The notes under the pieces were generated by a model. The model made no database searches and was not told where the DNA came from. It was given only the letters and a program-made list of their open reading frames with translations. 64,000 nt of DNA from Eledone cirrhosa (taxonomy: Eukaryota). Both the position numbers and the translations under genes were made by a program. Shown here piece after piece: positions 863 to 45,046 of this stretch. The stretch spans positions 181,784,001 to 181,848,000 of the forward strand of contig OZ024741.1 in assembly GCA_964016885.1 (NCBI GenBank), written 5' to 3'. The first letter of the stretch is position 1, and every line of letters starts with the position of its first letter.

Positions 863-3800
863 CAGAGGAACCTTGGGAATACATACATTTCCCCTTGATT
901 TCTCCAACAATAGTGACTTTATACGACTGACAGTTATGCGTGGGCCCTTATATAGACATGGTGGGTCCAATTTTCTGAAAAGGATGATGGGAGTTCCTGT
1001 CTTTAGTATCATTTTGTGTGGAAGAAGTCCACGGAGTTCCAGACTATTACAGAACTCTGCAAGTTAATTAACAGCTTCATCATTCCTTTCAATCTTGTCA
1101 ATGGAGAACCTTATGTATGAACCTTCCCATTGAGCGTATCCAGTAGGCATTGGTTGATCTGATTTACCATATTATTCTTTGATGTTAAAATTGTTCGCTC
1201 AAACAGCCATGATTGATTGATATAATTTGTGGTAACATTTGGATATACTTGATCAATTAGTTTATTTGCTGTATTGCAGATATTTCCAAATGTTACAGAT
1301 TTCCATCACCCGATGTAATTAGCTGTTTTGCAAAAGTATCAGTTTCTGTATCATTGTGAAACTGCACTCTCATGTTCGTCGTCAAGATTAATCGCTGGAC
1401 TTATTGCCATATATTTGAGACATTGAGGCAACCGTTTACAATATCAGCTCTTGTGCCTTTATGAACAACGGGGATAATCAGTCTGAAGTCACCAGCAAGC
1501 CCCATCGTTACTTCTCCCATAATTTCATTGCATCCTCTGATGTCGCTTAAAGAACGGTCAAGTGCTTCAAATAACCTTCTATGTGCCATTATCGCCTTCT
1601 CCGAAAGCTCTTCTTTTGACATGTTATTTTTCATATTGCCCGAAGGAGACTTTACTCTTATGACATTCAATGGCAACATGAATATTATTGTTTTGCCTCC
1701 ATGAAGTAAGGTAGCGGCAATAGCCAAGGGAATCTACTTTCGCTGTCTTACTTTTGCCAAAATGAGTTTTATAATGAAGGTTTTATCGGTTCCTCAGAGA
1801 GCATTCAAGAAGTAAAGGCCTTCTTCATTCTGGTTGATACTGTTCAAATTTTTCCATAAGCAATCCTTTGCTCTTCAGTTAGCTTTTCTTAATTTTCATT
1901 GACATATTGTGTAAGCTTTTTGATTTCATAGTTCGCCTCCCTTAATATATCCTATGATAAATGACATGTAACTGTGTCTTGAGGTTCTTGTAAACTGCAA
2001 TCCTTAAGGGACCAGCCAATTTTACTCAGATGGTTGTTAATTTCTGTCAGAGCTTCGTTATAGATCGGTGGAGAAAAATCTACATCAATGCCAGTGTTTT
2101 GAAGTTTGATCATGTGCAGTATATCTTCCAACAAGTTTTTCTCATAGCTTACACAGGAACTCAATGGATTTGAAATATTGCACGTAGTGAACATTACAGC
2201 GAGGAGTTTTCGAAGTTGTTTAGACATTTGTGTGGCAGCTGCATATTTCAATGTTTTTTCCAATATTCCCCATCTTTACGTAGGCCAAGTAATTTACATG
2301 CTTCAGCATACGCTACACAGGGAATTCCATTTACAATTTTGGTATTTTCAAATGATGTTGAACATCTAGCAGTGTGAAGGAGTAACCTCTAAAAGAGACA
2401 TTCCTTATGTCTAGAATGGACTGTGTAAACCCTCCATTCCTATTGTGCCACCTGCATTGATGTCTTGATAGACTATCTTTCGTTTGCTCAATTTCCTTTT
2501 GTTCCATATGTAGAATGTGGGAATCTCATGATAAAGCAAAGTTTTAGCAAAGGCATCTTCTCTACAAAGCTTTAAAAAAGCAGTGAGAGTTGTGTCTGGA
2601 GGAGATCTAGCCATCAATTGTGCATTGTAGTAAGTATAAAATATCCTCTGAACACTTTTCAAGTGGGCAGCAAGGTTTAATTTTGTTCGGTGTCTATTGT
2701 GTATATCGAAACCAAAGATTTTCCATATGGCTTCATTGCTAGAAATGTATCTTCCTGTTAGGTGCGTTTTAACATCATTCAATTATTTATCTCCACCAAT
2801 AGTAGAGGTTAACATATCACTACCTTTGTTGAACTATTTACAAACAGTTAATTGATTTGACTGTTGCGCTGTACTCACTATTGATGTGAGCGTCAAGGAT
2901 TTTGCAGAGGAGAGGATTGTAGGGAACGACCCAATTGCTTCCAACCTGAACATCTTGACCTCGTATCTTGATAATTGCATTTTTTTCATCAAAGTCAAGG
3001 CTTATCCGTCTGTATTGAGGATATCCATCATCTCCAGTTATGTTTTCTTGTTGAAAAGACCTTGGATGTCTTTTTCACATTTGTTACTTTTCATACACAC
3101 ATTCTCAGGGATTATACTGCCACATAGACCATGTAAAACAGTTCTGCTTCTTCTTCAGGATAGGGCAATTCGGCACTTATGATTTTATCAATTTCATTTG
3201 AATGAATGTGGTTAGTACACCAAATTATCGTGTGGGAATGAGGAAGACCTCTTTTCTGCCATTCAATGATGTAAGGCCAACATCTTAGTTCTCCAAAAGT
3301 TTGTCCATCTTTCAGCAGCCACATCAAGATCTTCTGTTTCTCATTAAAAACCCTGGTAATGATGTCATGTCATTTGCATCTTGGTGTTTTGAATTTCCTG
3401 CCACATAAGATTGCATGCAAATATAATGAAAAGAGCTAAAAAACCAAATTTTCTTACATATGCCAATGCATCTGGTGTGTGCGCAGCCATATAACGTGGA
3501 CTGACTGAAACGAGATGGCAGAATGACTGGCTGACCAACACAGGAATGATTCATTCCATCGATTACATTGGTGTCACTCAAGTGGATGTAATGTTCTGTG
3601 TTAAGTTTAGCTTGGTTAATTTTAATGAATGCTAACCATTAATTGGCTTGTATGTCTTTTCATTCTTAGGATATGGATGAAGCAATCTCTTATCACGAAG
3701 TAGAATGAAAAAAAGTTGTTGCAAATTTTATCTATCCTGACTACTGCAAAAAATCAAAAGATACTGAAGAGCGTCGTATACTCTGTGTGTCCCTGCAATT

Positions 3801-13760: not shown

Positions 13761-16700
13761 GACAGTCAACGCGACCAGTCGCATATTTTGGCGTGGGAGA
13801 CTATTTATTAAATTTAAGATGAATACTATCTCCGACAGTAATGCCACAACTACAGTCATGTTGAATAACTGGTTATTCTTCTAAAAATATCTTCTGAAGA
13901 CACCTTTTATTCGAATTCGTAGAGATATCCGACTAAATACATAATTCATTTTACAAGGATTTGCTACAAACAGCATGGCTGAACACAACATCAACAACAA
14001 AAAAATTAAGGGAGTACCGAAGACAAATAACAAGGAAGGTAAACAAACTTTATTCAGTTGTAGCTACAGAACAAACCGAAATTATAAATCGCATTTCTCT
14101 TGGAGTTGCGAACTTAATAATGATTTATTTAATTGTTATAAAATGGCAAAAAACAATCCCTCCATTGGCTATATGAACAGAATGAAGCTACACTGGGACG
14201 AAATACACACAGAGCTAAGTTATTTCACAGTGAAACAATTACGCCAAAAGCGACGTTTGTTGAACGTAAAAATAAGATAAATATTATTAATTGTAAGTCC
14301 CCCACAACAAACATGTTATCAACAACACGTGTTACAGGTCGCCATGCTACTAGACTTCCTAGCAGCCAGGTCGAAAGCTATGCCTGTAAAAAACTTGACA
14401 CCACCTGTACCATCTAAGTCTACCTTGAATGCTGGGGTAAACACTATCGATAATAATAATAACCGAAGAAATTTGACACCACGTGTACCATCCGAGTCTA
14501 CCTCGACTGTTGTGGAAAATACTATCGATAATGATAATCAAATGTATAAACAATTGAAATTTTCCCTCAACGAAATCTTCCAGAAAGAAATTAATTCATG
14601 TACAAATATCTCTCTTGCTGAACGTATTAAAACGACAATGTTTAATAAAAAACCAAATAATGAAATATTACGTGTTATTGACGAAATAGGGGATAAATAT
14701 TTACGACGGATAAAAACCCCAACATTTTGGCAAATCAACGCCTGTTTATATGCCTTAGCAACGGCAGTGAAGCATTATCTTGGTGATAGCAGAGATATTA
14801 ACAAGAACAGAACACCACCAAAAATACCATCATATATAACTAAAATAGAAAAAAAGATTGCTGACCTACGAAAAAACATAGGACATGTGACAATGTTCCT
14901 TACATGCAAACAAATACAAAAATACTTCTCTCCTCACCAACAAAGAGTGAAAAATAAAATAGAGACGATGTTTTTAACAATAGAACCGAACTCTCCAATA
15001 TAAGCTGATCACTCTCAAACAAGAATTGAGAGCTGTTAGCGAAAAACGCCGATACCTGAAGAAGATAGATGAGAGAAAATTGCTACAAAAAGATTCAGAC
15101 GAAACCAAACATCAGTCTATAGAGATATGAAGGAGGAAATAATAAGTGTCACTGAGGCCCCATCCCAGAAAGACATAGATTCCTTTTGGAACAAAATATG
15201 GGGTGAAAAAAAGAATTTCAACCAAGATGCAGTGTGGCTAAAAGAGATCCGAAAGAACTATTGCTCCTACGCTACAACAAAAACATACGAAATAAGTGAG
15301 GTTGCCCTTGAGACTGTTTTAGAAAACTCAAAGATAAGAAAACTCCAGGAAGAGACATGATTGTCGGCTACTGGTACAAAAAACTGATATTCTATCGGAG
15401 GTATCTTACTGACCTCTACCAACAAGTTCTTAAGGGAGATACACTTATACCAGAATGGTTGACATTAGCACAAACATTACTGGTCCCCAAGAACAAAGAC
15501 ACCCACTTGGCAAAAAACTACCGACCCATTGCATGCCAGAACCTGATGTATACGATGTATACAGCCTGCCTGAACCTATTCCTCCAAGATCACTGTGAAA
15601 ATAATAACATCATCACAGATGAACAAGCAGCTAGAAAGAAGGTTTGGGGATGTGCTGAGCAACTCCTAATCAACAAAACTGCGATGTCGGAGGTGCGACA
15701 ACTTAGGAGGAATATGGCTACAGTCTGGCTGGACTACAGGAAAACTTTCGATTCTGTTCCCCACTATTGGATGATAGAGGCCCTCCAACTTGCTAAAATC
15801 CCAGACATTATGTCAGAACCATAGAGAGGCTATCTTCTTCTTGGGCTACTATCCTAAGGTTAAAACAGAGGGAGGACTCTATTTTCACTGATAAAATAAA
15901 ATATTGCAGGGGTATATTTCAGGGGGACAGTTTCTCTGTGATATTAGTCATCTTGTCATTAAACCTCTTGTCCTTTCTGCTCAAGAAATGTGAGGGATAC
16001 ATCATTGGCTCACAGGAGGACGGAAATACGAACCTAACCCATAATTTCTTTGTGGATGATCTGAAACTCTATGCCAAGAACATGGATGGGATGAAGAAAA
16101 ATCTTGACCTCATTACAACGTTCCTCTAATGGTGTCTGTAATAAAGAACGCGTAACCAGGGAATACTACACCCGATTAAGAAAGATCTGGTCATCGGAAC
16201 TCTCTGCGCAAAACAAAACAGTGGCTCACAATGTGTTTGCTGCGCCTGTCCTAACACCAACGTTTGGAATACTCAATTGGACGATAGACGAAATCCGAGT
16301 AGTTGATGTTGGAACTCGAAAAATACTAAACAACACCGGAAATTTCCACATCAACAGTGACATAGACCGCCTTTACTTGAAACGTAAGCAGGGTGGTAGA
16401 GGCCTAACATCAGTCAAGGGATTTGAATGTCGCATCATATCTCTCCGACAACATCTACGAACCTCGAAGCGTAGGAGCCCGTTTCTCGAGCAAGTCTATC
16501 TGCATGAAACAGATAAGATCATGAGAGTTGGGAAGGAACTCCTCGAGAGATATTCCCTGTGTGATAATCAAAAACTCACACCCAGGGATGTCGCTCAGCA
16601 GTATCGCAGTGAATCCATGGATGAAAAGCTGCATGCTTATCATCAAAACATCATGCATGGATATGTTGCCAGGAAGCTCCAGAGTGAGAGTAATATAGAT

Positions 16701-17680
16701 AAGGAAAGTAGTCTATCTTGGACCAACTACCGCTATATTGGCTCCCACTTTGAAGGATACGTTTTTGCAATCCAAGAACAGGAGATTAACACGAAATAAC
16801 TGATTCACAAAAGAGATAGGGATGCAGGCAAAACACTTAGATGTGATAACAAGTGCAGACTCTGCAGAACTAACATCGAGGATATCACCCATATCATCAG
16901 CAGCTGTCCAAAGATGTCATCGCGGTACTATCTACCTATGAGGCATGATGCAGTGGCCAAAACACTTTACAATGCAGTTCGTAAAAAAGATAGCCCCGAT
17001 AATAAACACATTAAAAGCTACAGCAATGTGGAAGACATCCATGTACATAATATGAAAGAGTACTGGTGCAATGTTCAAGTAAAACCCCCAATAAAATGTA
17101 GGCATAACAGACCAGACATTATGATATGGGACAGAGAGAAGAAAGCATGCACAGTAGTGGAAATTAGCTGCCCAGCAGATGCCAATATAATATCAAAGAT
17201 TAGTTAAAAGGAGAATATTTATGCAGAACTGATGAGAAATCTGCAGATACTCCACCCTGATTACACCTTCAGAGTTATGCCTGTGATTATTGGGGCACTG
17301 GGGTATGTTAGTAACTGCCTCAATACAAATATTGAGAAGCTAGGCTTCACAGGAACAGAAATAACACAACTAGTTAGGAAATTACAAGTACAATCCATTA
17401 ATGGAACAGTAAACATATGTAAAACATTCCAAAAATGTTGCATCTAATAACTGCATATACACATGTACAGATACAAAGCATATACACATGCACACATACA
17501 ACTCAAAATATACACATCCACTCATACAATAACATCCATATCTACACATGCATGCATACATACATATCTACCTAGTTGATGTTGTGTAAATTCCAATGAG
17601 AGAGTCTTGTGTCTATGTTAGAAACCGACTCTCTCTCTCTATTGGTAACACTTTGTGAAATTATAAAACCAGAAGAAGAT
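13761..17680 (+). mobile_element. Near full-length R4/Dong-like non-LTR retrotransposon (RT + CCHC + restriction-like endonuclease), pseudogenised
   Basis: N-terminal GYMNRMKLHW. RT motifs YRPIAC, WLDYRKTFDSVPH, GIFQGDS, FFVDDLKLY, RLYLKRKQGGRGL. CRLC..HIISSC, RHDAVAK, HNRPDI, VVEISCP, PVIIGALG. There is an internal deletion near 16125. Both ends abut TACA repeats. Confidence 0.93.
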
Positions 17681-23047: not shown

Positions 23048-23781
23048 AAATTAGTCCTTCATCACTGATTTTCCAACCTTCATTGGTATTTCATCGCTTT
23101 AAAAATCATATACCTCTAGTTGGTGCGAGCAATAGCTAAATAAAGCTATTGGGACAAGTAAAATAGCGTGAAGCGAGCGAGACATGTAAACAAACAAAGA
23201 TGGTATTGCAACGGAAAGATAGGAAGAGAAAAGTATATGATATCTATAAGCTTAAGCTTGGTGAATTCATGGACGAGAGAGATATACAGACCATCCGACA
23301 TGGGTGAGATGTGAGCGAGAAAAGTATTTCACACAGGTCAAACGGGAGGAAGTGAGAGAGGGGTTAGTTACAAAATATCAGATAAGGAATATATTTACTT
23401 ACATGTATATATATTTACTTACATGTACTTGTGTTTGCACTTAATTAACATTCAGACTTAAATTTTTCTTTCAAGTGTACGTATCCTTTCACCCACGCAT
23501 TCACACACAAATATATTTGCACACCTCTACAAAATACATATACTCACAATTCACATATTCATACTTACATATATATACACATGCATACACATATATATAC
23601 ACACATGTATTCATGTACATACTTACGCGTTCATGTGTATACATTTTCATACTCAACTTATCTTTATATACACACGTATAGACACACACATATATACATA
23701 CTTACTCTAGTCCATGTGTACACACATACACATACATACACATCTATATACACATATATACATACATATACATATATATAC

Positions 23782-23864
<83 letters not shown>

Positions 23865-24168
23865 CACACACACATATACACACATATATACATATATATA
23901 TATAAGCACTTTAATACATGAATACACTTACATCTAACTATACACATCAAACATATATATATATTTACTTATTTATATACATTTTCACATATATATACAT
24001 ACTTATGGACGTTTTTAGACACATTCATTATCGCATATTTGCACCTATTCTCATCGGCATATCTTTCCATTATTAGTGTGGTAATTTAAGGTTATTAATA
24101 TATGTTGAGAAGAGATTGTTTTTATATTTTTCTAACTAGATTAAGGTTTATATAGTTGGGGGATGTCC

Positions 24169-25298
24169 TGGATGTCACACTCAATTTAAACTCTGGTTTG
24201 ATTAAACCGTTTCATAAATTGAATGAAAATCTCAAATACGTAAATGTTGGGTCTAACCACCCCATCTCTATAATTAAATCTATCCCTAAAAATATTTCCC
24301 TTAGAATCTCGGGTCTATCTTCTAACATACAAGTTTTTAAGGAACACGCCGAGTACTTCGATAACGCCCTTAGTAAAGCAGGCTACCTCAACAAAATAGA
24401 GTACATAGATGGGAACAATCAAAACACCCAAAATAAATCCCACATAGGTAGATATAATAACACAACACCAAACCACACTTACTACCATAGTATGCACACC
24501 AGTAAACCAACAAACAAAACTAATAGAAAGCGATGCAAAGAGTACTTATGGTATAACCCCGAATACAATAGTTCCATTAGTACAAATTTACCAGTACTCT
24601 TCTTTAAAATAATTAAAAGACATTTTCCCACATCACACAAATACCACAAAATCCTAAACCCTACCACTATAAGACTGTCATACTCTACAGCGTTAAACCT
24701 TGAACAACACATAAAAAAGATCAATACTAGAAGGTTAAACGAAAACACTAAGAACTTAAGTACAAAGAACACAAAAAAAACAGTAGACAATACACTACAG
24801 AACATAAATAAACCACACCTAAGTTCGTCCGCAATACTACTCCAGAGAAAACCCAACGTACACAACTGTAACTGCACCTATCCTGACAACTGCCCCCTCG
24901 GCAATAACTGCCTGGAAAAAAATATTATTTATAAGTGTACCATTAAATCCGGAGGCAACGAGTGGTATTACGTGGGATCAACGGCAACATCGTTTAAATC
25001 TCGATTGTATAGGCATTCTTACTCAATAAAACACCAGAGCCAAAGAAATGTAACAACTTTAGCAGAAAAGGCTTGGACGCTCAGGGATAACGATCAAAAG
25101 TTTACCCTAAAATGGGAGAAATTAGCTAAAACCCAAAGCTTTTCCAGGAGCCAAAATTTCTGCAAATTGTGTAATCTTGAGATTTATTACATAATCACAC
25201 ACAAGAAGAAACTGCTGAATAACAGAATTGAACGAACATTATTCTGCCGTCACAGAACTAAAACCCTTTTTTCCCACTACAAGCCGAATATTACATAA
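24169..25298 (+). CDS. Uninterrupted PLE RT-thumb + CxC-x5-C linker + GIY-YIG endonuclease (no RT catalytic core, no native start)
   Basis: LDVTLNL..KPFHK..YVNVGSNHP, WYNPEY, CNCTYPDNCPL, IIYKC..YYVGSTATSFKSRLYRH, CKLCNLE..LLNNR..CRH. Highly similar to ORF 31766-33094. Confidence 0.75.
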
Positions 25299-25611
25299 AA
25301 GAGGGACATCCCCCAACTATATAAACCTTAATCTAGTTAGAAAAATATAAAAACAATCTCTTCTCAACATATATTAATAACCTTAAATTACCACACTAAT
25401 AATGGAAAGATATGCCGATGAGAATAGGTGCAAATATGCGATAATGAATGTGTCTAAAAACGTCCATAAGTATGTATATATATGTGAAAATGTATATAAA
25501 TAAGTAAATATATATATATGTTTGATGTGTATAGTTAGATGTAAGTGTATTCATGTATTAAAGTGCTTTTATATATATATATGTATATATGTGTGTATAT
25601 GTGTGTGTGTA

Positions 25612-25682
<71 letters not shown>

Positions 25683-26252
25683 GTATATATATGTATATGT
25701 ATGTATATATGTGTATATAGATGTGTATGTATGTGTATGTGTGTACACATGGACTAGAGTAAGTATGTATATATGTGTGTGTCTATACGTGTGTATATAA
25801 AGATAAGTTGAGTATGAAAATGTATACACATGAGCGCGTAAGTATGTACATGAATACATGTGTGTATATATATGTGTATGCATATGTAAGTATGAATATG
25901 TGAATTGTGAGTATATGTATTTTGTAGAGGTGTGCAAATATATTTGTGTGTGAATGCGTGGGTGAAAGGATACGTACACTTGAAAGACAAATTTAAGTCT
26001 GAATGTTAATTAAGTGCAAACACAAAACCAACCACGCATATCTTTACTATCTCTAATCCTTCTATAGATTTAGAAAAATAACCAATAATATATTCTATAA
26101 AAAATGTCAAAACAACAGATGGGAATCTAATTACTCACTGCCACGAAGAATTCTCACTGCTATCGAAAAACCACTCCTTCAACTATTCTTCTAACAACTT
26201 CACCCCTCCCTCCTAATATTCTCTATAAAAACTAAATAGGTCCTCAGTAATA

Positions 26253-26372
26253 TTATTCTGATGAAATGACAGTAAATAATAACATTGAAATATTGAATGT
26301 CTGCATAACTAAAAGTTTGTAGATAGCAGCTGTTTTAGGTTATGTAACTGTTATAGAAACACGTGTCAATAA
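26253..26372 (+). ncRNA. Type-I hammerhead ribozyme, long stem II
   Basis: TTATT-CTGATGA-aATGACAGT...ACTGTTATa-GAAA-CACGTG-TC-AATAA. Canonical core, palindromic stem III, GUC cleavage triplet. Confidence 0.8.
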
Positions 26373-26434
26373 ATTCCTTTCAACTAAACTGTATCCATTC
26401 AAATCTTTCTATATATATATATATATATATGAGT

Positions 26435-30414: not shown

Positions 30415-33900
<3,486 letters not shown>

Positions 33901-33903
<3 letters not shown>

Positions 33904-34089
33904 AATGAAGTAATTCCGTCGGAAAGGTTCAGGAAAAAAGAGTGTTCTATGTAGGTGACAAAGCTTATTTATGTATTAAACAACATAAGATGATTATTTC
34001 ATTTACCAGTGGTTTCTTGAAAGCAAATAAAATAAATGCTTTCAAGAAACCACTGGTAAATGAAATATTCATCTTATGTTGTTTATTAC

Positions 34090-34090
<1 letters not shown>
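33901..34090. mobile_element. Miniature fold-back element between (TA)n tracts
   Basis: Arms ~33971-34025 and ~34036-34090 are near-perfect. The arm contains GAAA-CCACTGG-TA. Confidence 0.75.
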
Positions 34091-34119
<29 letters not shown>

Positions 34120-34124
<5 letters not shown>

Positions 34125-37100
34125 TTACATGAATCAAAGTTCTGTTTAAATCATTTATTTGCTTACAATTGTTTCTTCCAAACCGAGGTTTGGGGTCTTC
34201 GGAGCAATTATTCAGTGATTTTTAACATACTTGACCTCCTTTTCAACACAAGAGACATATAGAAACATATGTATATATTGACCCACAGTGGGTTGACATC
34301 CATTATAATAATATAGCATGGTAATTTACATACAAAGATTACAGTCATATTAAAGGACAGAATTAAAATTAAAATAAAAATTAAAATTAAAATTAAAATA
34401 AAACATTGGCAGTTTACTAAGATAAAGCAAGAGGAAAGTTTGGAGTAGCCAGTGTATGCAACAGTCACGCGTGTGGCATGCACGCGTGTCCTATTTATAC
34501 AAGATTATAGTGCGGCAGATTGTTACATGTAAAACAAGCAGTCAAAGCAGGCAATTAAGAGAATCATGGGGCTGTACTGGTAAAGCATTATTCACACACA
34601 CCTGTACGATATAGAAGCCCGTGTGTAGAGAAACACCAAAAATATCAAAAATATTACAAATGAGAAGCAAAACAGCACCACTGTCCTCGTACACACCACC
34701 ACTCTCACAATCCAAGAAACGGAATTTATAGACTACATGTCCATCACACAATCCACGATGATTTAACATTGGGTGCCTGGTGAACCATGCTAGAACATCA
34801 CAGCTTGTCGTTTTTTAATTCGATTCTATAGAGCAGGTTGTATTTGTTGTGAGAGTTGACATCGTATTATATTCCGGAAGTGTGTGTGTGATTAAGGGGA
34901 GTTAATGCGTAAGGGGAGGTAACTATCTGATTTCTATAGCTAAATTTATTATCCTAAAGTACATTAATGGTGTCTCAAATGAGTTCCTATCATATAAGGT
35001 TATAAACAATTTCTAAATTTAAGTATCTTATCTATAAATTACAGTGTAGTCTATCAAGAAGTACTAAAGGTGTTCATATTAGGATGATTACCTTCTATCT
35101 TAGAGTGCCACCACCCAATATTCCACATGAAGAGTCAGATCTCCAAATCAATGATCTTTGTAAGTGTAGTCCACTCGTAGAACCTGGCAGGGTCTTATTA
35201 GAATCACTTCTATATATGACTCCTGGTAAGCTCTGGGTCATTGCATGTCTGATTGCATGGCAAAGTTAAATATCACTAGGGTAGTCCAGAGATCAATTCT
35301 CACCTACAAAGACACTAATCTGACCATCAAGTCATACATGTATTAATAACTCATACATCACCTGTACATAATTCATTGCACTCAGCATATAGATTATATA
35401 GCTCTTTTATGTTAATAAATTAATTATTTAATCTTTCATTTATCCAATGATGGCACTATATACACAGGAAAATGTTAGCACAACCAATTCCTTGCTTAAA
35501 GTTTACATTAATTATATATTGGTGTAATGTAGTCTAAACAATTGAAGGCCAATATACCAAAAGTAGAAGTACATGTGGATATCTCTAGGGTAAAAGGTAC
35601 TAGGAGGATGTCACTATTTGCGTTAAAGTGGATTAATGGGTGTGGAGATGAGGTGTAAGGTGTGCCCCTGATGAAAGAACTAGAAAACTATTGCACAAGA
35701 CATTCAAAAACTATAACCTTAGTATTACGATGGACAAAAACACTAAAAACGTTAACTTCCTGGACGCCACCCTCTACCTAGACTCAAAGATATTCCACAA
35801 ACCTAATGAAAAACTCATTTACGTAGATACCAAGTCTAACCACCCTAGATCTATATTAAACTCTATCTCTAAGGGAGTATCTAATAGAATCTCTAATCTA
35901 TCCTATGACGTAAACATATTTAGCAAAAACTCGCAATATTATAATCAGGCATTAGCTAGATCAGGCCATAATATAGAGATCGAGTTCCTACCTACAAAAC
36001 ACATAGCTACAACATTATTTCGCACAACATGTCCACGAGGAAATTTAGTAATAGGAATACCAACCACACACACACTAATACGGAGGATGCCAACAAAAGT
36101 AACCCACACCACAGAAATTACCATAGTACCATAAATGGAAACAACTCACCAGACATAAAAAACAAAAATAGAAGAAGAAATAATACATTTTTCAACCCTC
36201 CTTTCAACCTAAACGTCTCTACCAACCTACCTAGGGCTTTCTTCTCACTACTAGATAAAAACATCCCATCCGGCCACAAGTACCATAGCCTTTTAAACAA
36301 AAACACTATTAAAATATCCTACTCTACTACGCCTAACATAGCATACCACATAGATAGTAGCAATAAAAGAAAAAATAATTCTTACTTCCATCAAACTAAA
36401 TCACAACAGACGATAAACCTTCAAAATAACATTATAGCAACTAACCCTAATATCAATAGAAATAATAGTAATAGCACTAGTGTAAACAATAACGCTGGGA
36501 ACGTCAACCCATATAACCATAACCCTATAGCTACCATCCAGACTTCTACACAACATAATAACCAGCAGACTAACACCCAGAATAATTGTAACTTTAGATA
36601 AAAAATGCTTAACCAAGGATATCTCATGCACAGTCACAACTAGCAACTCTTCTGAAACCTATATAGGCTCTACTTCAAACTGCTTCAAAACCAGATACAA
36701 TTCGCACCTCCACTCTTTCAAAAAACACAGTCTAGCCAACTTCACTTCACTATCTAGCTACATACACTATCTAAAAACTAAAAATAAACCATATACACTT
36801 AAATGGGAAGTGATAGGTAACGCGACATCGTACAAACCACCTAATACATTTTGTAACCTCTGTCTACTAGAGACCCATACTATCATCTTCTCAAACCATA
36901 ACCTCCTTAATAAAAAATCATAAGTGTTCGCGACTTGCCAACACCGCTTCCGACACTCCTTCCAAAACTTTAAACCCTTAATATAAAACAATGTCAGACT
37001 TGAACCCGTCACCACCTCTAGCAGCAATCATCAGGGGCACACCTTACACCTCATCTCCACACCCATTAATCCACTTTAACGCAAATAGTGACATCCTCCT

Positions 37101-38582
37101 AGTACCTTTTACCCTAGAGATATCCACATGTACTTCTACTTTTGGTATATTGGCCTTCAATTGTTTAGACTACATTACACCAATATATAATTAATGTAAA
37201 CTTTAAGCAAGGAATTGGTTGTGCTAACATTTTCCTGTGTATATAGTGCCATCATTGGATAAATGAAAGATTAAATAATTAATTTATTAACATAAAAGAG
37301 CTATATAATCTATATGCTGAGTGCAATGAATTATGTACAGGTGATGTATGAGTTATTAATACATGTATGACTTGATGGTCAGATTAGTGTCTTTGTAGGT
37401 GAGAATTGATCTCTGGACTACCCTAGTGATATTTAACTTTGCCATGCAATCAGACATGCAATGACCCAGAGCTTACCAGGAGTCATATATAGAAGTGATT
37501 CTAATAAGACCCTGCCAGGTTCTACGAGTGGACTACACTTACAAAGATCATTGATTTGGAGATCTGACTCTTCATGTGGAATATTGGGTGGTGGCACTCT
37601 AAGATAGAAGGTAATCATCCTAATATGAACACCTTTAGTACTTCTTGATAGACTACACTGTAATTTATAGATAAGATACTTAAATTTAGAAATTGTTTAT
37701 AACCTTATATGATAGGAACTCATTTGAGACACCATTAATGTACTTTAGGATAATAAATTTAGCTATAGAAATCAGATAGTTACCTCCCCTTACGCATTAA
37801 CTCCCCTTAATCACACACACACTTCCGGAATATAATACGATGTCAACTCTCACAACAAATACAACCTGCTCTATAGAATCGAATTAAAAAACGACAAGCT
37901 GTGATGTTCTAGCATGGTTCACCAGGCACCCAATGTTAAATCATCGTGGATTGTGTGATGGACATGTAGTCTATAAATTCCGTTTCCTGGATTGCGAGAG
38001 TGGTGGTGTGTACGAGGACAGTGGTGCTGTTTTGCTTCTCATTTGTAATATTTTTGATATTTTTGGTGTTTCTCTACACACGGGCTTCTATATCGTACAG
38101 GTGTGTGTGAATAATGCTTTACCAGTACAGCCCCATGATGCTCTTAATTGCCTGCTTTGACTGCTTGTTTTACATGTAACAATCTGCCGCACTATAATCT
38201 TGTATAAATAGGACACGCGTGCATGCCACACGCGTGACTGTTGCATACACTGGCTACTCCAAACTTTCCTCTTGCTTTATCTTAGTAAACTGCCAATGTT
38301 TTATTTTAATTTTAATTTTAATTTTAATTTTAACTTTAATTTTGTCCTTTAATATGACTGTAATCTTTGTATGTAAATTACCATGCTATATTATTATAAT
38401 GGATGTCAACCCACTGTGGGTCAATATATACATATGTTTCTATATGTCTCTTGTGTTGAAAAGGAGGTCAAGTATGTTAAAAATCACTGAATAATTGCTC
38501 CGAAGACCCCAAACCTCGGTTTGGAAGAAACAATTGTAAGCAAATAAATGATTTAAACAGAACTTTGATTCATATAATCTCT
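34120..38582 (+). mobile_element. 5'-truncated PLE flanked by ~1.55-kb inverted repeats (34120-35674 and 37028-38582)
   Basis: The ORF track shows mirrored near-identical ORFs. Spacer 35675-37027 encodes frameshifted FLDATL, SNHP, FFNPPF, CNF, YIGSTS..FKTRYNSH and CNLCLLE. Confidence 0.93.
38495..38543 (+). ncRNA. Minimal type-I hammerhead, U4C core variant (mirror copy at 34159-34207, minus strand)
   Basis: TTGCT-CCGAAGA-ccCCAAACC-TC-GGTTTGGaa-GAAA-CAATTG-TA-AGCAA. Confidence 0.75.
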
Positions 38583-38726
38583 ATATAACTGCTCTGTAAA
38601 ACAACTGATGTTGTTACATTGAGCTATTTATCTTACTGGTAATAAGATAGTAATAAATTACTGTCTTTCACTATTTAGGGTATAAAATATATATAACTAT
38701 AAAAGGTTTTAGTATATACATAACCA

Positions 38727-38945
38727 TAAATAGTATCCTTAATACTATATATATATATATAGTATTAAGGATACTATTTCAATGGCTATAATCGAAATAT
38801 ATATAGCAGTAAATATAGGATTATTAATTCATGCAATTGACTTATGTTTCGTCACTATATATATATATAGTGACGAAACATAAGTCAATTGCATGAACTC
38901 ATAATCCTTTATTTACTGCTATATATATTTCGATGATAGCCATTG
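38727..38945. repeat. Two adjacent palindromes, each centred on a short (TA)n
   Basis: AAATAGTATCCTTAATAC-(TA)n-GTATTAAGGATACTATTT, then ~38778-38855 / ~38870-38945 reverse complements. Confidence 0.9.
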
Positions 38946-38970
38946 AATGGCTATGACCTCATCAGGCAGT
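38915..38970 (-). ncRNA. Canonical minimal type-I hammerhead
   Basis: Minus strand: ACTGC-CTGATGA-GGTCATAGCCAT-TCA-ATGGCTATCATC-GAAA-TATATA-TA-GCAGT. Confidence 0.85.
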
Positions 38971-39250
38971 TAGTCAGTTCTTAGATATGCCAGCTCTGTG
39001 TTTATAGTGTTGATGGTATCAGAGCCTTGGAACATATGAGCTTGTTAGGAACAATTTAATGTTGTCAGCAGGAATAGTCTTGATTCTCATTGGTCAGTTT
39101 GTAGATGGTAGTAGGGTTGGTATTTGACCTCAAAGAGGCAGGTGGTGTTGTAAAGTTCAAACCGTCCGGCAAGATGACAATAGTTCCATATGACTGATTT
39201 TCACAAAAAGCATTCCTGGTCAGATATATATTAAATTAAGGTTAATAGTA

Positions 39251-40365: not shown

Positions 40366-40773
<408 letters not shown>

Positions 40774-44858: not shown

Positions 44859-44867
44859 GTATATATA

Positions 44868-44978
44868 TAGAGAGATTACATGAATCAAAGTTCTGTTTAA
44901 ATCATTTATTTGCTTACAATTGTTTCTTCCAAACCGAGGTTTGGAGTCTTCGGGGCAAGCAATTATTCAGTGATTTTT

Positions 44979-44982
<4 letters not shown>
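44868..44982 (-). mobile_element. ~115-bp solo hammerhead + tail of the 34120-38582 PLE family, in (TA)n
   Basis: Nearly identical to 34118-34228 and flanked by long (TA)n on both sides. Confidence 0.9.

Positions 44983-45046
<64 letters not shown>

Follow-up and report, generated by a model that had tools for sequence, protein, structure and literature searches.

How does a single retroelement insertion come to carry two outward-facing copies of its own 3' end, only one of them with a tail? The question is raised by a head-to-head cassette at 34120-38748 of a 64,000-nt stretch of the Eledone cirrhosa genome (assembly GCA_964016885.1, contig OZ024741.1, positions 181,784,001 to 181,848,000; hereafter, the window). 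The cassette is a single dead insertion of a 5'-truncated Hydra-clade Penelope-like element (PLE) in a (TA)n target, with an inverted 5' copy, and it has no function of its own that can be shown. Our favoured answer, to which we assign a probability of about 0.6, is that a single element RNA served as template for reverse transcription from both nicked strands of the target, beginning at its two fixed start sites.

The two arms, 34120-35674 on the minus strand and 37028-38582 on the plus strand, form the window's longest inverted repeat (1555 nt each, 7 mismatches). They enclose a unique centre of 1353 nt that holds the remnant of a reverse transcriptase (RT) thumb and a GIY-YIG domain in broken frames, as in the preliminary description of this DNA, which had placed inverted repeats of about 1.55 kb around these domains. 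The inverted arm is a copy of the 3' untranslated region (UTR), running from its outer end to 42 nt past the stop codon at 36986; it does begin just beyond the end of the open reading frame (ORF), as had been claimed. It joins the main copy at 35673-35674 through a 2-nt (GA) microhomology, a junction that is unique in the genome. Downstream of the truncated ORF (35673-36986, plus strand), the main copy continues as a 1.76-kb 3' UTR or pseudo-long terminal repeat (pLTR) region at 36987-38748 (plus strand), which contains the right arm. This copy extends about 166 nt beyond its arm through a tail (38583-38748, plus strand) found on this side only, and then meets (TA)n at 38749-38760. The left arm ends in (GA)7 (34111-34124, plus strand) and (TA)n (34090-34110), the two (TA)n flanks being recognised by sequence and having no strand. 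The left arm lacks the 166-nt tail, and the earlier statement that the inverted arm spans the entire 3' region has to be narrowed to this extent.

The outer ends carry the main evidence. The 3.0-Gb genome was searched with a core query (3656 candidates) and a 3' end query (3385 candidates), and each sample consists of the 40 best-scoring of the 1,600-3,700 candidates per search. For the family of this cassette (family 1), 80 loci were fetched and the duplicates L033, L067, L082 and L093 removed, leaving 76 distinct loci, 58 of which contain a complete head-to-head pair. Standard outer ends fall at two points that bound the tail: a short end, S (...GTAATCTCT[ATA], window 38582-38588), and a long end, L (...AATACTAT, 38748). 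Among 60 head-to-head units, 53 join one S to one L end, 2 are S+S, none is L+L and 5 have one non-standard end; S+L pairing is thus found in 53/55 pairs having standard ends. The locus L079, scored as S+S by script, reads on inspection as two abutting S+L units. In a tail-independent sample, pairing is S+L in 25/27 cases (P=2.8e-6 if ends were chosen freely); the tail belongs to the longer arm in 13 of these and to the shorter arm in 12. A second family (family 2), which has its own S and L sites 115 nt apart, shows S+L in 18/18 distinct pairs after removal of the duplicate L130.

The position of the tail bears on a fold-back origin, in which one cDNA, or an antisense template, folds back to serve as its own template. 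This route was proposed for Adineta vaga Penelope by Arkhipova et al. (2013, PMC3846280), who explained its inverted pLTR insertions by self-priming on an antisense template; those insertions resemble the present ones in their head-to-head inverted copy, the optional tail on one pLTR and their microhomology junctions. Arms that share a haplotype, described below, would be expected from it, and a handful of junctions have near-palindromic sequence or templated inserts (L039, L046). However, the tail sits on the shorter arm in 19/53 S+L pairs, so that neither arm contains the other, and the distance between the inner ends is usually hundreds of bases. With the tail on either arm, the self-priming account is a misfit as a general route; in that role fold-back is largely refuted and highly unlikely, and it could explain a minority of cases. 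The inner junctions (n=62) mostly show overlaps of 0-7 nt, including the GA of the window, the rest having longer overlaps or short inserts.

The two arms of an insertion also share their sequence variants. In the window, they agree at 61/61 polymorphic sites, and across the family at 714/733 family-polymorphic sites, the 19 disagreements comparing with 299 expected from random draws. Over 45 arm pairs, which hold 236 arm-private changes, arm-to-arm divergence averages 2.1%, versus 4.5% to other loci. A shared haplotype would also fit a model with an asymmetric dimer holding two RNAs of one source locus, where S is the start for one subunit and L for the other. This model is in keeping with the dimer predicted for the PLE Poseidon_Ac, and it removes the need for two cDNAs to copy the same stretch of one RNA. 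It requires an extra rule against S+S and L+L, given the mixed pairs in 53/55 and 18/18 cases, and so few disagreements at informative sites would have to arise despite several co-existing subfamily variants. We regard the two-RNA model as unlikely, while deserving serious consideration.

Both outer ends are accompanied by the same signal. The 4.2-kb unit has only two copies of the motif TAACTGCTC, 163 nt apart, one directly behind S and the other directly behind L. In the window, the motif and a bulged hairpin (GCTC-helix-TT-GAGC) occupy 38586-38624 (plus strand), immediately past the S end; the motif's occurrence behind the L end is seen in tandem precursors. An element of the form CTC-helix-NN-GAG stands 4-6 nt behind family-1 S, family-1 L and family-2 L, there being 4 such positions in 4236 nt, and the S hairpin is intact in 60/70 read-through copies. 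The S ends further bear marks of the kind expected from initiation. The pyrimidine run, (TC)n, extends beyond the templated 4 nt in 31/64 terminal ends (up to 94 nt) versus 0/64 read-through sites, and an 8-9-nt unit is reiterated at some S ends (L046, L059, L101). As the template holds only two GA units, the extra units in the (GA)7 run at the left end of the cassette were likely added by slippage at initiation.

These marks bear on the proposal, given as the most likely in PMC8557442, that both arms start at one site and an endonuclease trims the tail off one arm on resolving the intermediate. Trimming accounts for one tail per insertion and for the shared haplotype. Against it, (TC)n extensions and 8-9-nt reiterations occur at terminal S ends only and resemble initiation; the same RNA-sense motif lies behind both ends; and both tail boundaries serve as RT start sites in vitro for Poseidon_Ac (PMC11167929). 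Trimming is, in our estimate, distinctly unlikely.

If priming instead occurred at two sites, the reaction would involve: nicking of both (TA)n strands by the GIY-YIG domain; a start at S from one 3'-OH and at L from the other, matching the ends seen, each a few bases ahead of TAACTGCTC and the bulged hairpin; addition of (GA)n at S by slippage; copying upstream on the same template by both cDNAs, which would end independently of each other, in this case after 1.55 kb and 3.08 kb; and joining of the cDNA ends by microhomology, for which the short overlaps speak, with fill-in to give outward-facing arms and a tail on one side. In L1 twin priming, both target strands likewise prime on one RNA, and a microhomology join yields a 5' inversion. 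There, the two cDNAs do not overlap in what they copy, and the second primer may land at any position. Here, in contrast, the start sites would be fixed and the copied sequences would overlap, which would explain why the 3' region is duplicated.

In vitro, both target strands are nicked and extended by Poseidon_Ac, for which two internal RNA start sites bound the tail, a dimer is predicted and the target is AT-rich (Frangieh et al. 2024, PMC11167929). Two start sites bounding the tail and an AT-rich target are common to both systems, and the use of both strands, seen for Poseidon_Ac, is what we infer here. In the available portions of that report, the two sites are not tied to the two arms of one insertion; distinct here are the genomic one-of-each pairing, the repeated motif behind both sites and the slippage at S. 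A rule of one S and one L on the same template, or two-site twin priming for PLEs, was not found in literature searches that covered few subscription papers.

The template of two-site priming was probably a circular or multimeric RNA, judging from the arrangement of the motif: L has it only where the 3' repeat meets the ORF start, so that long copies primed at L point to such a template. At tandem loci, the pLTR and the 3' repeat have the same haplotype at 41/43 informative sites, which is compatible with a circular template and no proof of one. Formation of circular RNA by hammerhead cleavage and RtcB ligation has been shown in retrozymes.

Several observations weigh against two-site priming or its parts. 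All the evidence for it comes from genomic end products, and a shared haplotype points to a common source lineage without implying a single molecule; it would also result from gene conversion, or from one source dominating at a time. Because the best-scoring 40 per search were sampled, the samples lean to young copies like that of the window. One locus, L099, is a clear S+S case. The family-2 S hairpin is a variant in the copy tested (L143), where the motif test failed; most copies inspected fit by eye. The circular template becomes optional, since hammerhead mutants left Poseidon_Ac insertion in vitro unaffected (PMC11167929). In the window itself, 15 private substitutions in 1344 nt and several deletions mark the core, while the arms have about 10 private changes in common and differ at 7/1555 positions; either the source was defective and was mobilised in trans, or later homogenisation acted on the arms.

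A broader form of the proposal is that Hydra-clade PLEs integrate by programmed two-site twin priming, in which an RT-endonuclease dimer would use TAACTGCTC and its hairpin, present twice, on one circular or multimeric RNA, would begin a single cDNA on each of the cut target strands and would add telomerase-like repeats at S. We hold this generalisation tentatively and rate it at slightly below even odds. If it is true, one mechanism would account for three features of all PLEs, namely the tandem pLTR, the inverted copy and the one-sided tail; PMC8557442 describes the origin of the last two as an open question. PLEs are the closest relatives of telomerase, and reiterated repeat addition at initiation would link the mechanism directly. 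The cassette itself is ordinary, and it is the counts of S+L pairing, either-arm tails, haplotype, signals and reiterations that yield specific, testable predictions.

The inner ends had suggested a different answer. From two look-alike cassettes within 15 kb, the preliminary description proposed a preferred pathway or a stable sub-element type. This was taken to mean either a non-autonomous sub-element bounded by terminal inverted repeats or breakage favoured just downstream of the RT catalytic motif. The cassette does break just past that motif, 36 nt (12 codons) after YRDD. Its neighbour at 23429-26410, taken earlier as unrelated, is a member of family 2, a second Hydra-clade family whose proteins are 41% identical over 635 residues to those of family 1, and it breaks about 42 codons after YRDD; the breakpoints said to match are some 30 codons apart. 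Nor does the neighbour share the full design of a hammerhead at each end: its S end is on the right, its left outer end is lost and it has a hammerhead on the right only. Family 2 is young, at about 99% identity, with intact frames of 777-779 codons in L112, L140 and L143.

Genome-wide counts bear on both versions of this alternative. The 25-nt junction has one match at no more than 1 mismatch in the 3.0 Gb, and no copies share the inner junction and the ends, which refutes a stable sub-element for this cassette. For the breakpoints, L152 and its twin at C2:201890419 were dropped as duplicates, copies running past u650 lay outside the test, and 2 of 10 matches in one batch had no mapped start. 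Truncations within 150 nt after YRDD number 4/27 among GIY-YIG-anchored family-1 copies (2.8 expected, P=0.31), with an even spread overall (uniformity P=0.92). None of 60 family-1 inverted arms ends within 100 nt past the stop, and head-to-head pairs mostly break within the 3' UTR. In family 2, 6/25 truncations fall in the same interval (unit 1114-1264; P=0.008; overall uniformity P=0.87), a weak local excess in favour of a preferred breakpoint that may reflect a weak pause site. Some inner breakpoints are also secondary: L033 and L035, 32 kb apart on C3, share flanks and differ in their palindrome centres, and they are a duplicated insertion, in one copy of which about 700 nt of the centre were subsequently lost. 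A stable sub-element or preferred breakpoint is extremely improbable, and the likeness of the two cassettes in the window is best taken as coincidence, the layout being very common. The preference lies in a pathway that fixes both outer ends and not in where the inner breaks fall.

An assembly mirror would also produce inverted arms. Nine sequencing runs were listed, with no RNA or long-read set among them. In four of these compared with 35380-36200, the family is present and no read spans the junction; the reads differ from the window at its private sites and are therefore uninformative on the junction. The 7 arm mismatches, the unlike flanks and the unique centre speak against a mirror, and the layout recurs with other breakpoints. 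As arms differ, flanks and centre are unique, and arm-private changes have accumulated in the 45 pairs, these mirrors have aged in the genome. There is next to no chance of a mirror artefact, in agreement with the earlier argument from arm differences.

The identity of the element as a PLE, recognised from the outset, follows from RT plus GIY-YIG, the pLTR and the hammerheads. In sister copies, the RT motifs through YRDD, which the cassette remnant continues, and GIY-YIG at the C terminus lie in a single frame. The remnant's GIY-YIG scores E=0.0016 in Pfam, under the curated cut-off, and a Pfam search of two long sister ORFs gave no RT or GIY-YIG match. The near-full copy L071 has a 4212-nt unit with a partial tandem pLTR ahead of it; none of 14 near-full copies has an intact family-1 ORF, the longest being 637 aa. 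Traits of endonuclease-bearing (EN+) PLEs are present: a partial tandem pLTR, an inverted 5' copy, a one-sided tail and a hammerhead motif in the pLTR.

Within the EN+ PLEs, the definition of the Hydra clade (Craig et al. 2021, PMC8557442) comprises RWR/RWK, DKT, YRDD, CxCX5C, CxxC/CxH, (TA)n targets and, close to the 3' end, a sense hammerhead. Family 1 has RVRWR and ADKTNN, and family 2 RVRWK and ADKTSN, with DKT instead of DKG. A CxCX5C linker, and CxxC and CxH beside E and N, are present without CCHH (CNCRSNRTC, CNLCLLE, LLN...CQH; compared by eye with Hydra-1_Obim), and insertions of both families target (TA)n. By motifs, target and hammerhead, the element is assigned to the Hydra clade of C-terminal EN+ PLEs. 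Naiad and Chlamys were considered and rejected: these require an N-terminal GIY-YIG and no hammerhead, and here GIY-YIG is C-terminal and a hammerhead is present. The units, at 4212 nt (family 1) and 3582 nt (family 2), exceed the "under 3 kb" Hydra descriptor owing to the long 3' UTR.

Layout and clade are known already. A 5'-truncated inverted copy with a one-sided tail is described for PLEs generally (PMC8557442, PMC3846280), and Penelope-13_HM (PMC8557442), in which a 966-nt inverted copy is 5'-truncated and both strands bear a hammerhead, has the same design as the cassette. The long tail, the long UTR and the fixed U4C hammerhead core are variations: the Hydra families listed in PMC8557442 measure 1.1-3.0 kb, compared with a 4.2-kb unit, a 1.76-kb 3' UTR and a U4C core here, and the tail measures about 166 nt (115 in family 2) versus the 30-40 bp described for PLEs.

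Each arm carries one minimal type I hammerhead with a CCGAAGA (U4C) core, at 34159-34207 (minus strand, core at 34202) and at 38495-38543 (plus strand, core at 38500, predicted cut after 38538). The two copies are identical, and core and stems I-III are found on both strands, bearing out the initial identification. The right copy has stem I TTGCT/AGCAA, the core CCGAAGA...GAAA, a 6-bp stem II and a palindromic stem III, a layout matching the Hydra-clade hammerheads of PMC8557442 File S2. Its predicted minimum free energy structure as a monomer lacks the full hammerhead fold (z=-0.70). An Rfam scan of the window gave 119 matches at E<=1, all below gathering, with no hammerhead or SECIS family among them. 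Minimal dimeric type I PLE hammerheads have a short palindromic helix III, a long helix II and a pLTR location (Cervera and de la Pena 2014, PMC4209133), as do those of the window, and dual motifs on opposite strands are already known in PLEs from the same report. In contrast to dimeric PLE hammerheads, the two motifs of the cassette, being on opposite strands, cannot pair in one transcript; each would be a passenger of the insertion. The U4C core is a low-activity natural variant (Perreault 2011, PMC3088659). Compared with PMC4209133 and PMC3088659, it is here fixed across a family with thousands of candidate copies, position 4 being C in 125/129 family segments.

Relative to sister copies, the window ORF has deletions near 35796 (9 nt), 35994 (1), 36594 (23) and 36624 (6) and an in-frame stop at 36921; the 23-nt deletion falls in the CxCX5C linker, which is lost from this copy. 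Its remnant comprises the end of the RT palm, the thumb, an N-rich linker and GIY-YIG. The DSLN versus DALN difference reported between mirrored ORFs is real (34562/38140), and the frame holding it is a 90-codon stop-free stretch of 3' UTR with no coding evidence. A coding role for the 3' UTR was rejected, its frames being incidental and 62-98 codons long. In older copies, UTR divergence exceeds ORF divergence.

Further fragments lie around the cassette. To the right of the L end, at 38761-38990, a 20-nt inverted copy of the family-1 L end abuts a 3' piece (76 nt) of a third hammerhead family; across (TA)n at 38857-38869, this piece and a longer copy (CTGATGA core 38965, minus strand) face each other tail-to-tail, and a cross-family chimera or a target fold-back is possible. 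Short fold-back stubs occur at 33966-34096 and 40400-40600, the latter with CTGAAGA hammerhead cores on both strands (at 40468, minus, and at 40531, plus). A solo 120-nt family-1 S-end fragment with a hammerhead (core 44953, minus strand) lies between (TA)n runs at 44865-44984. Farther away, 15312-17207 holds unrelated RT fragments of LINE (long interspersed nuclear element) type (Pfam RVT_1 E=3.7e-9, zf-RVT weak), and 30831-33094 holds two long stop-free frames of 214 and 494 codons that match no Pfam family.

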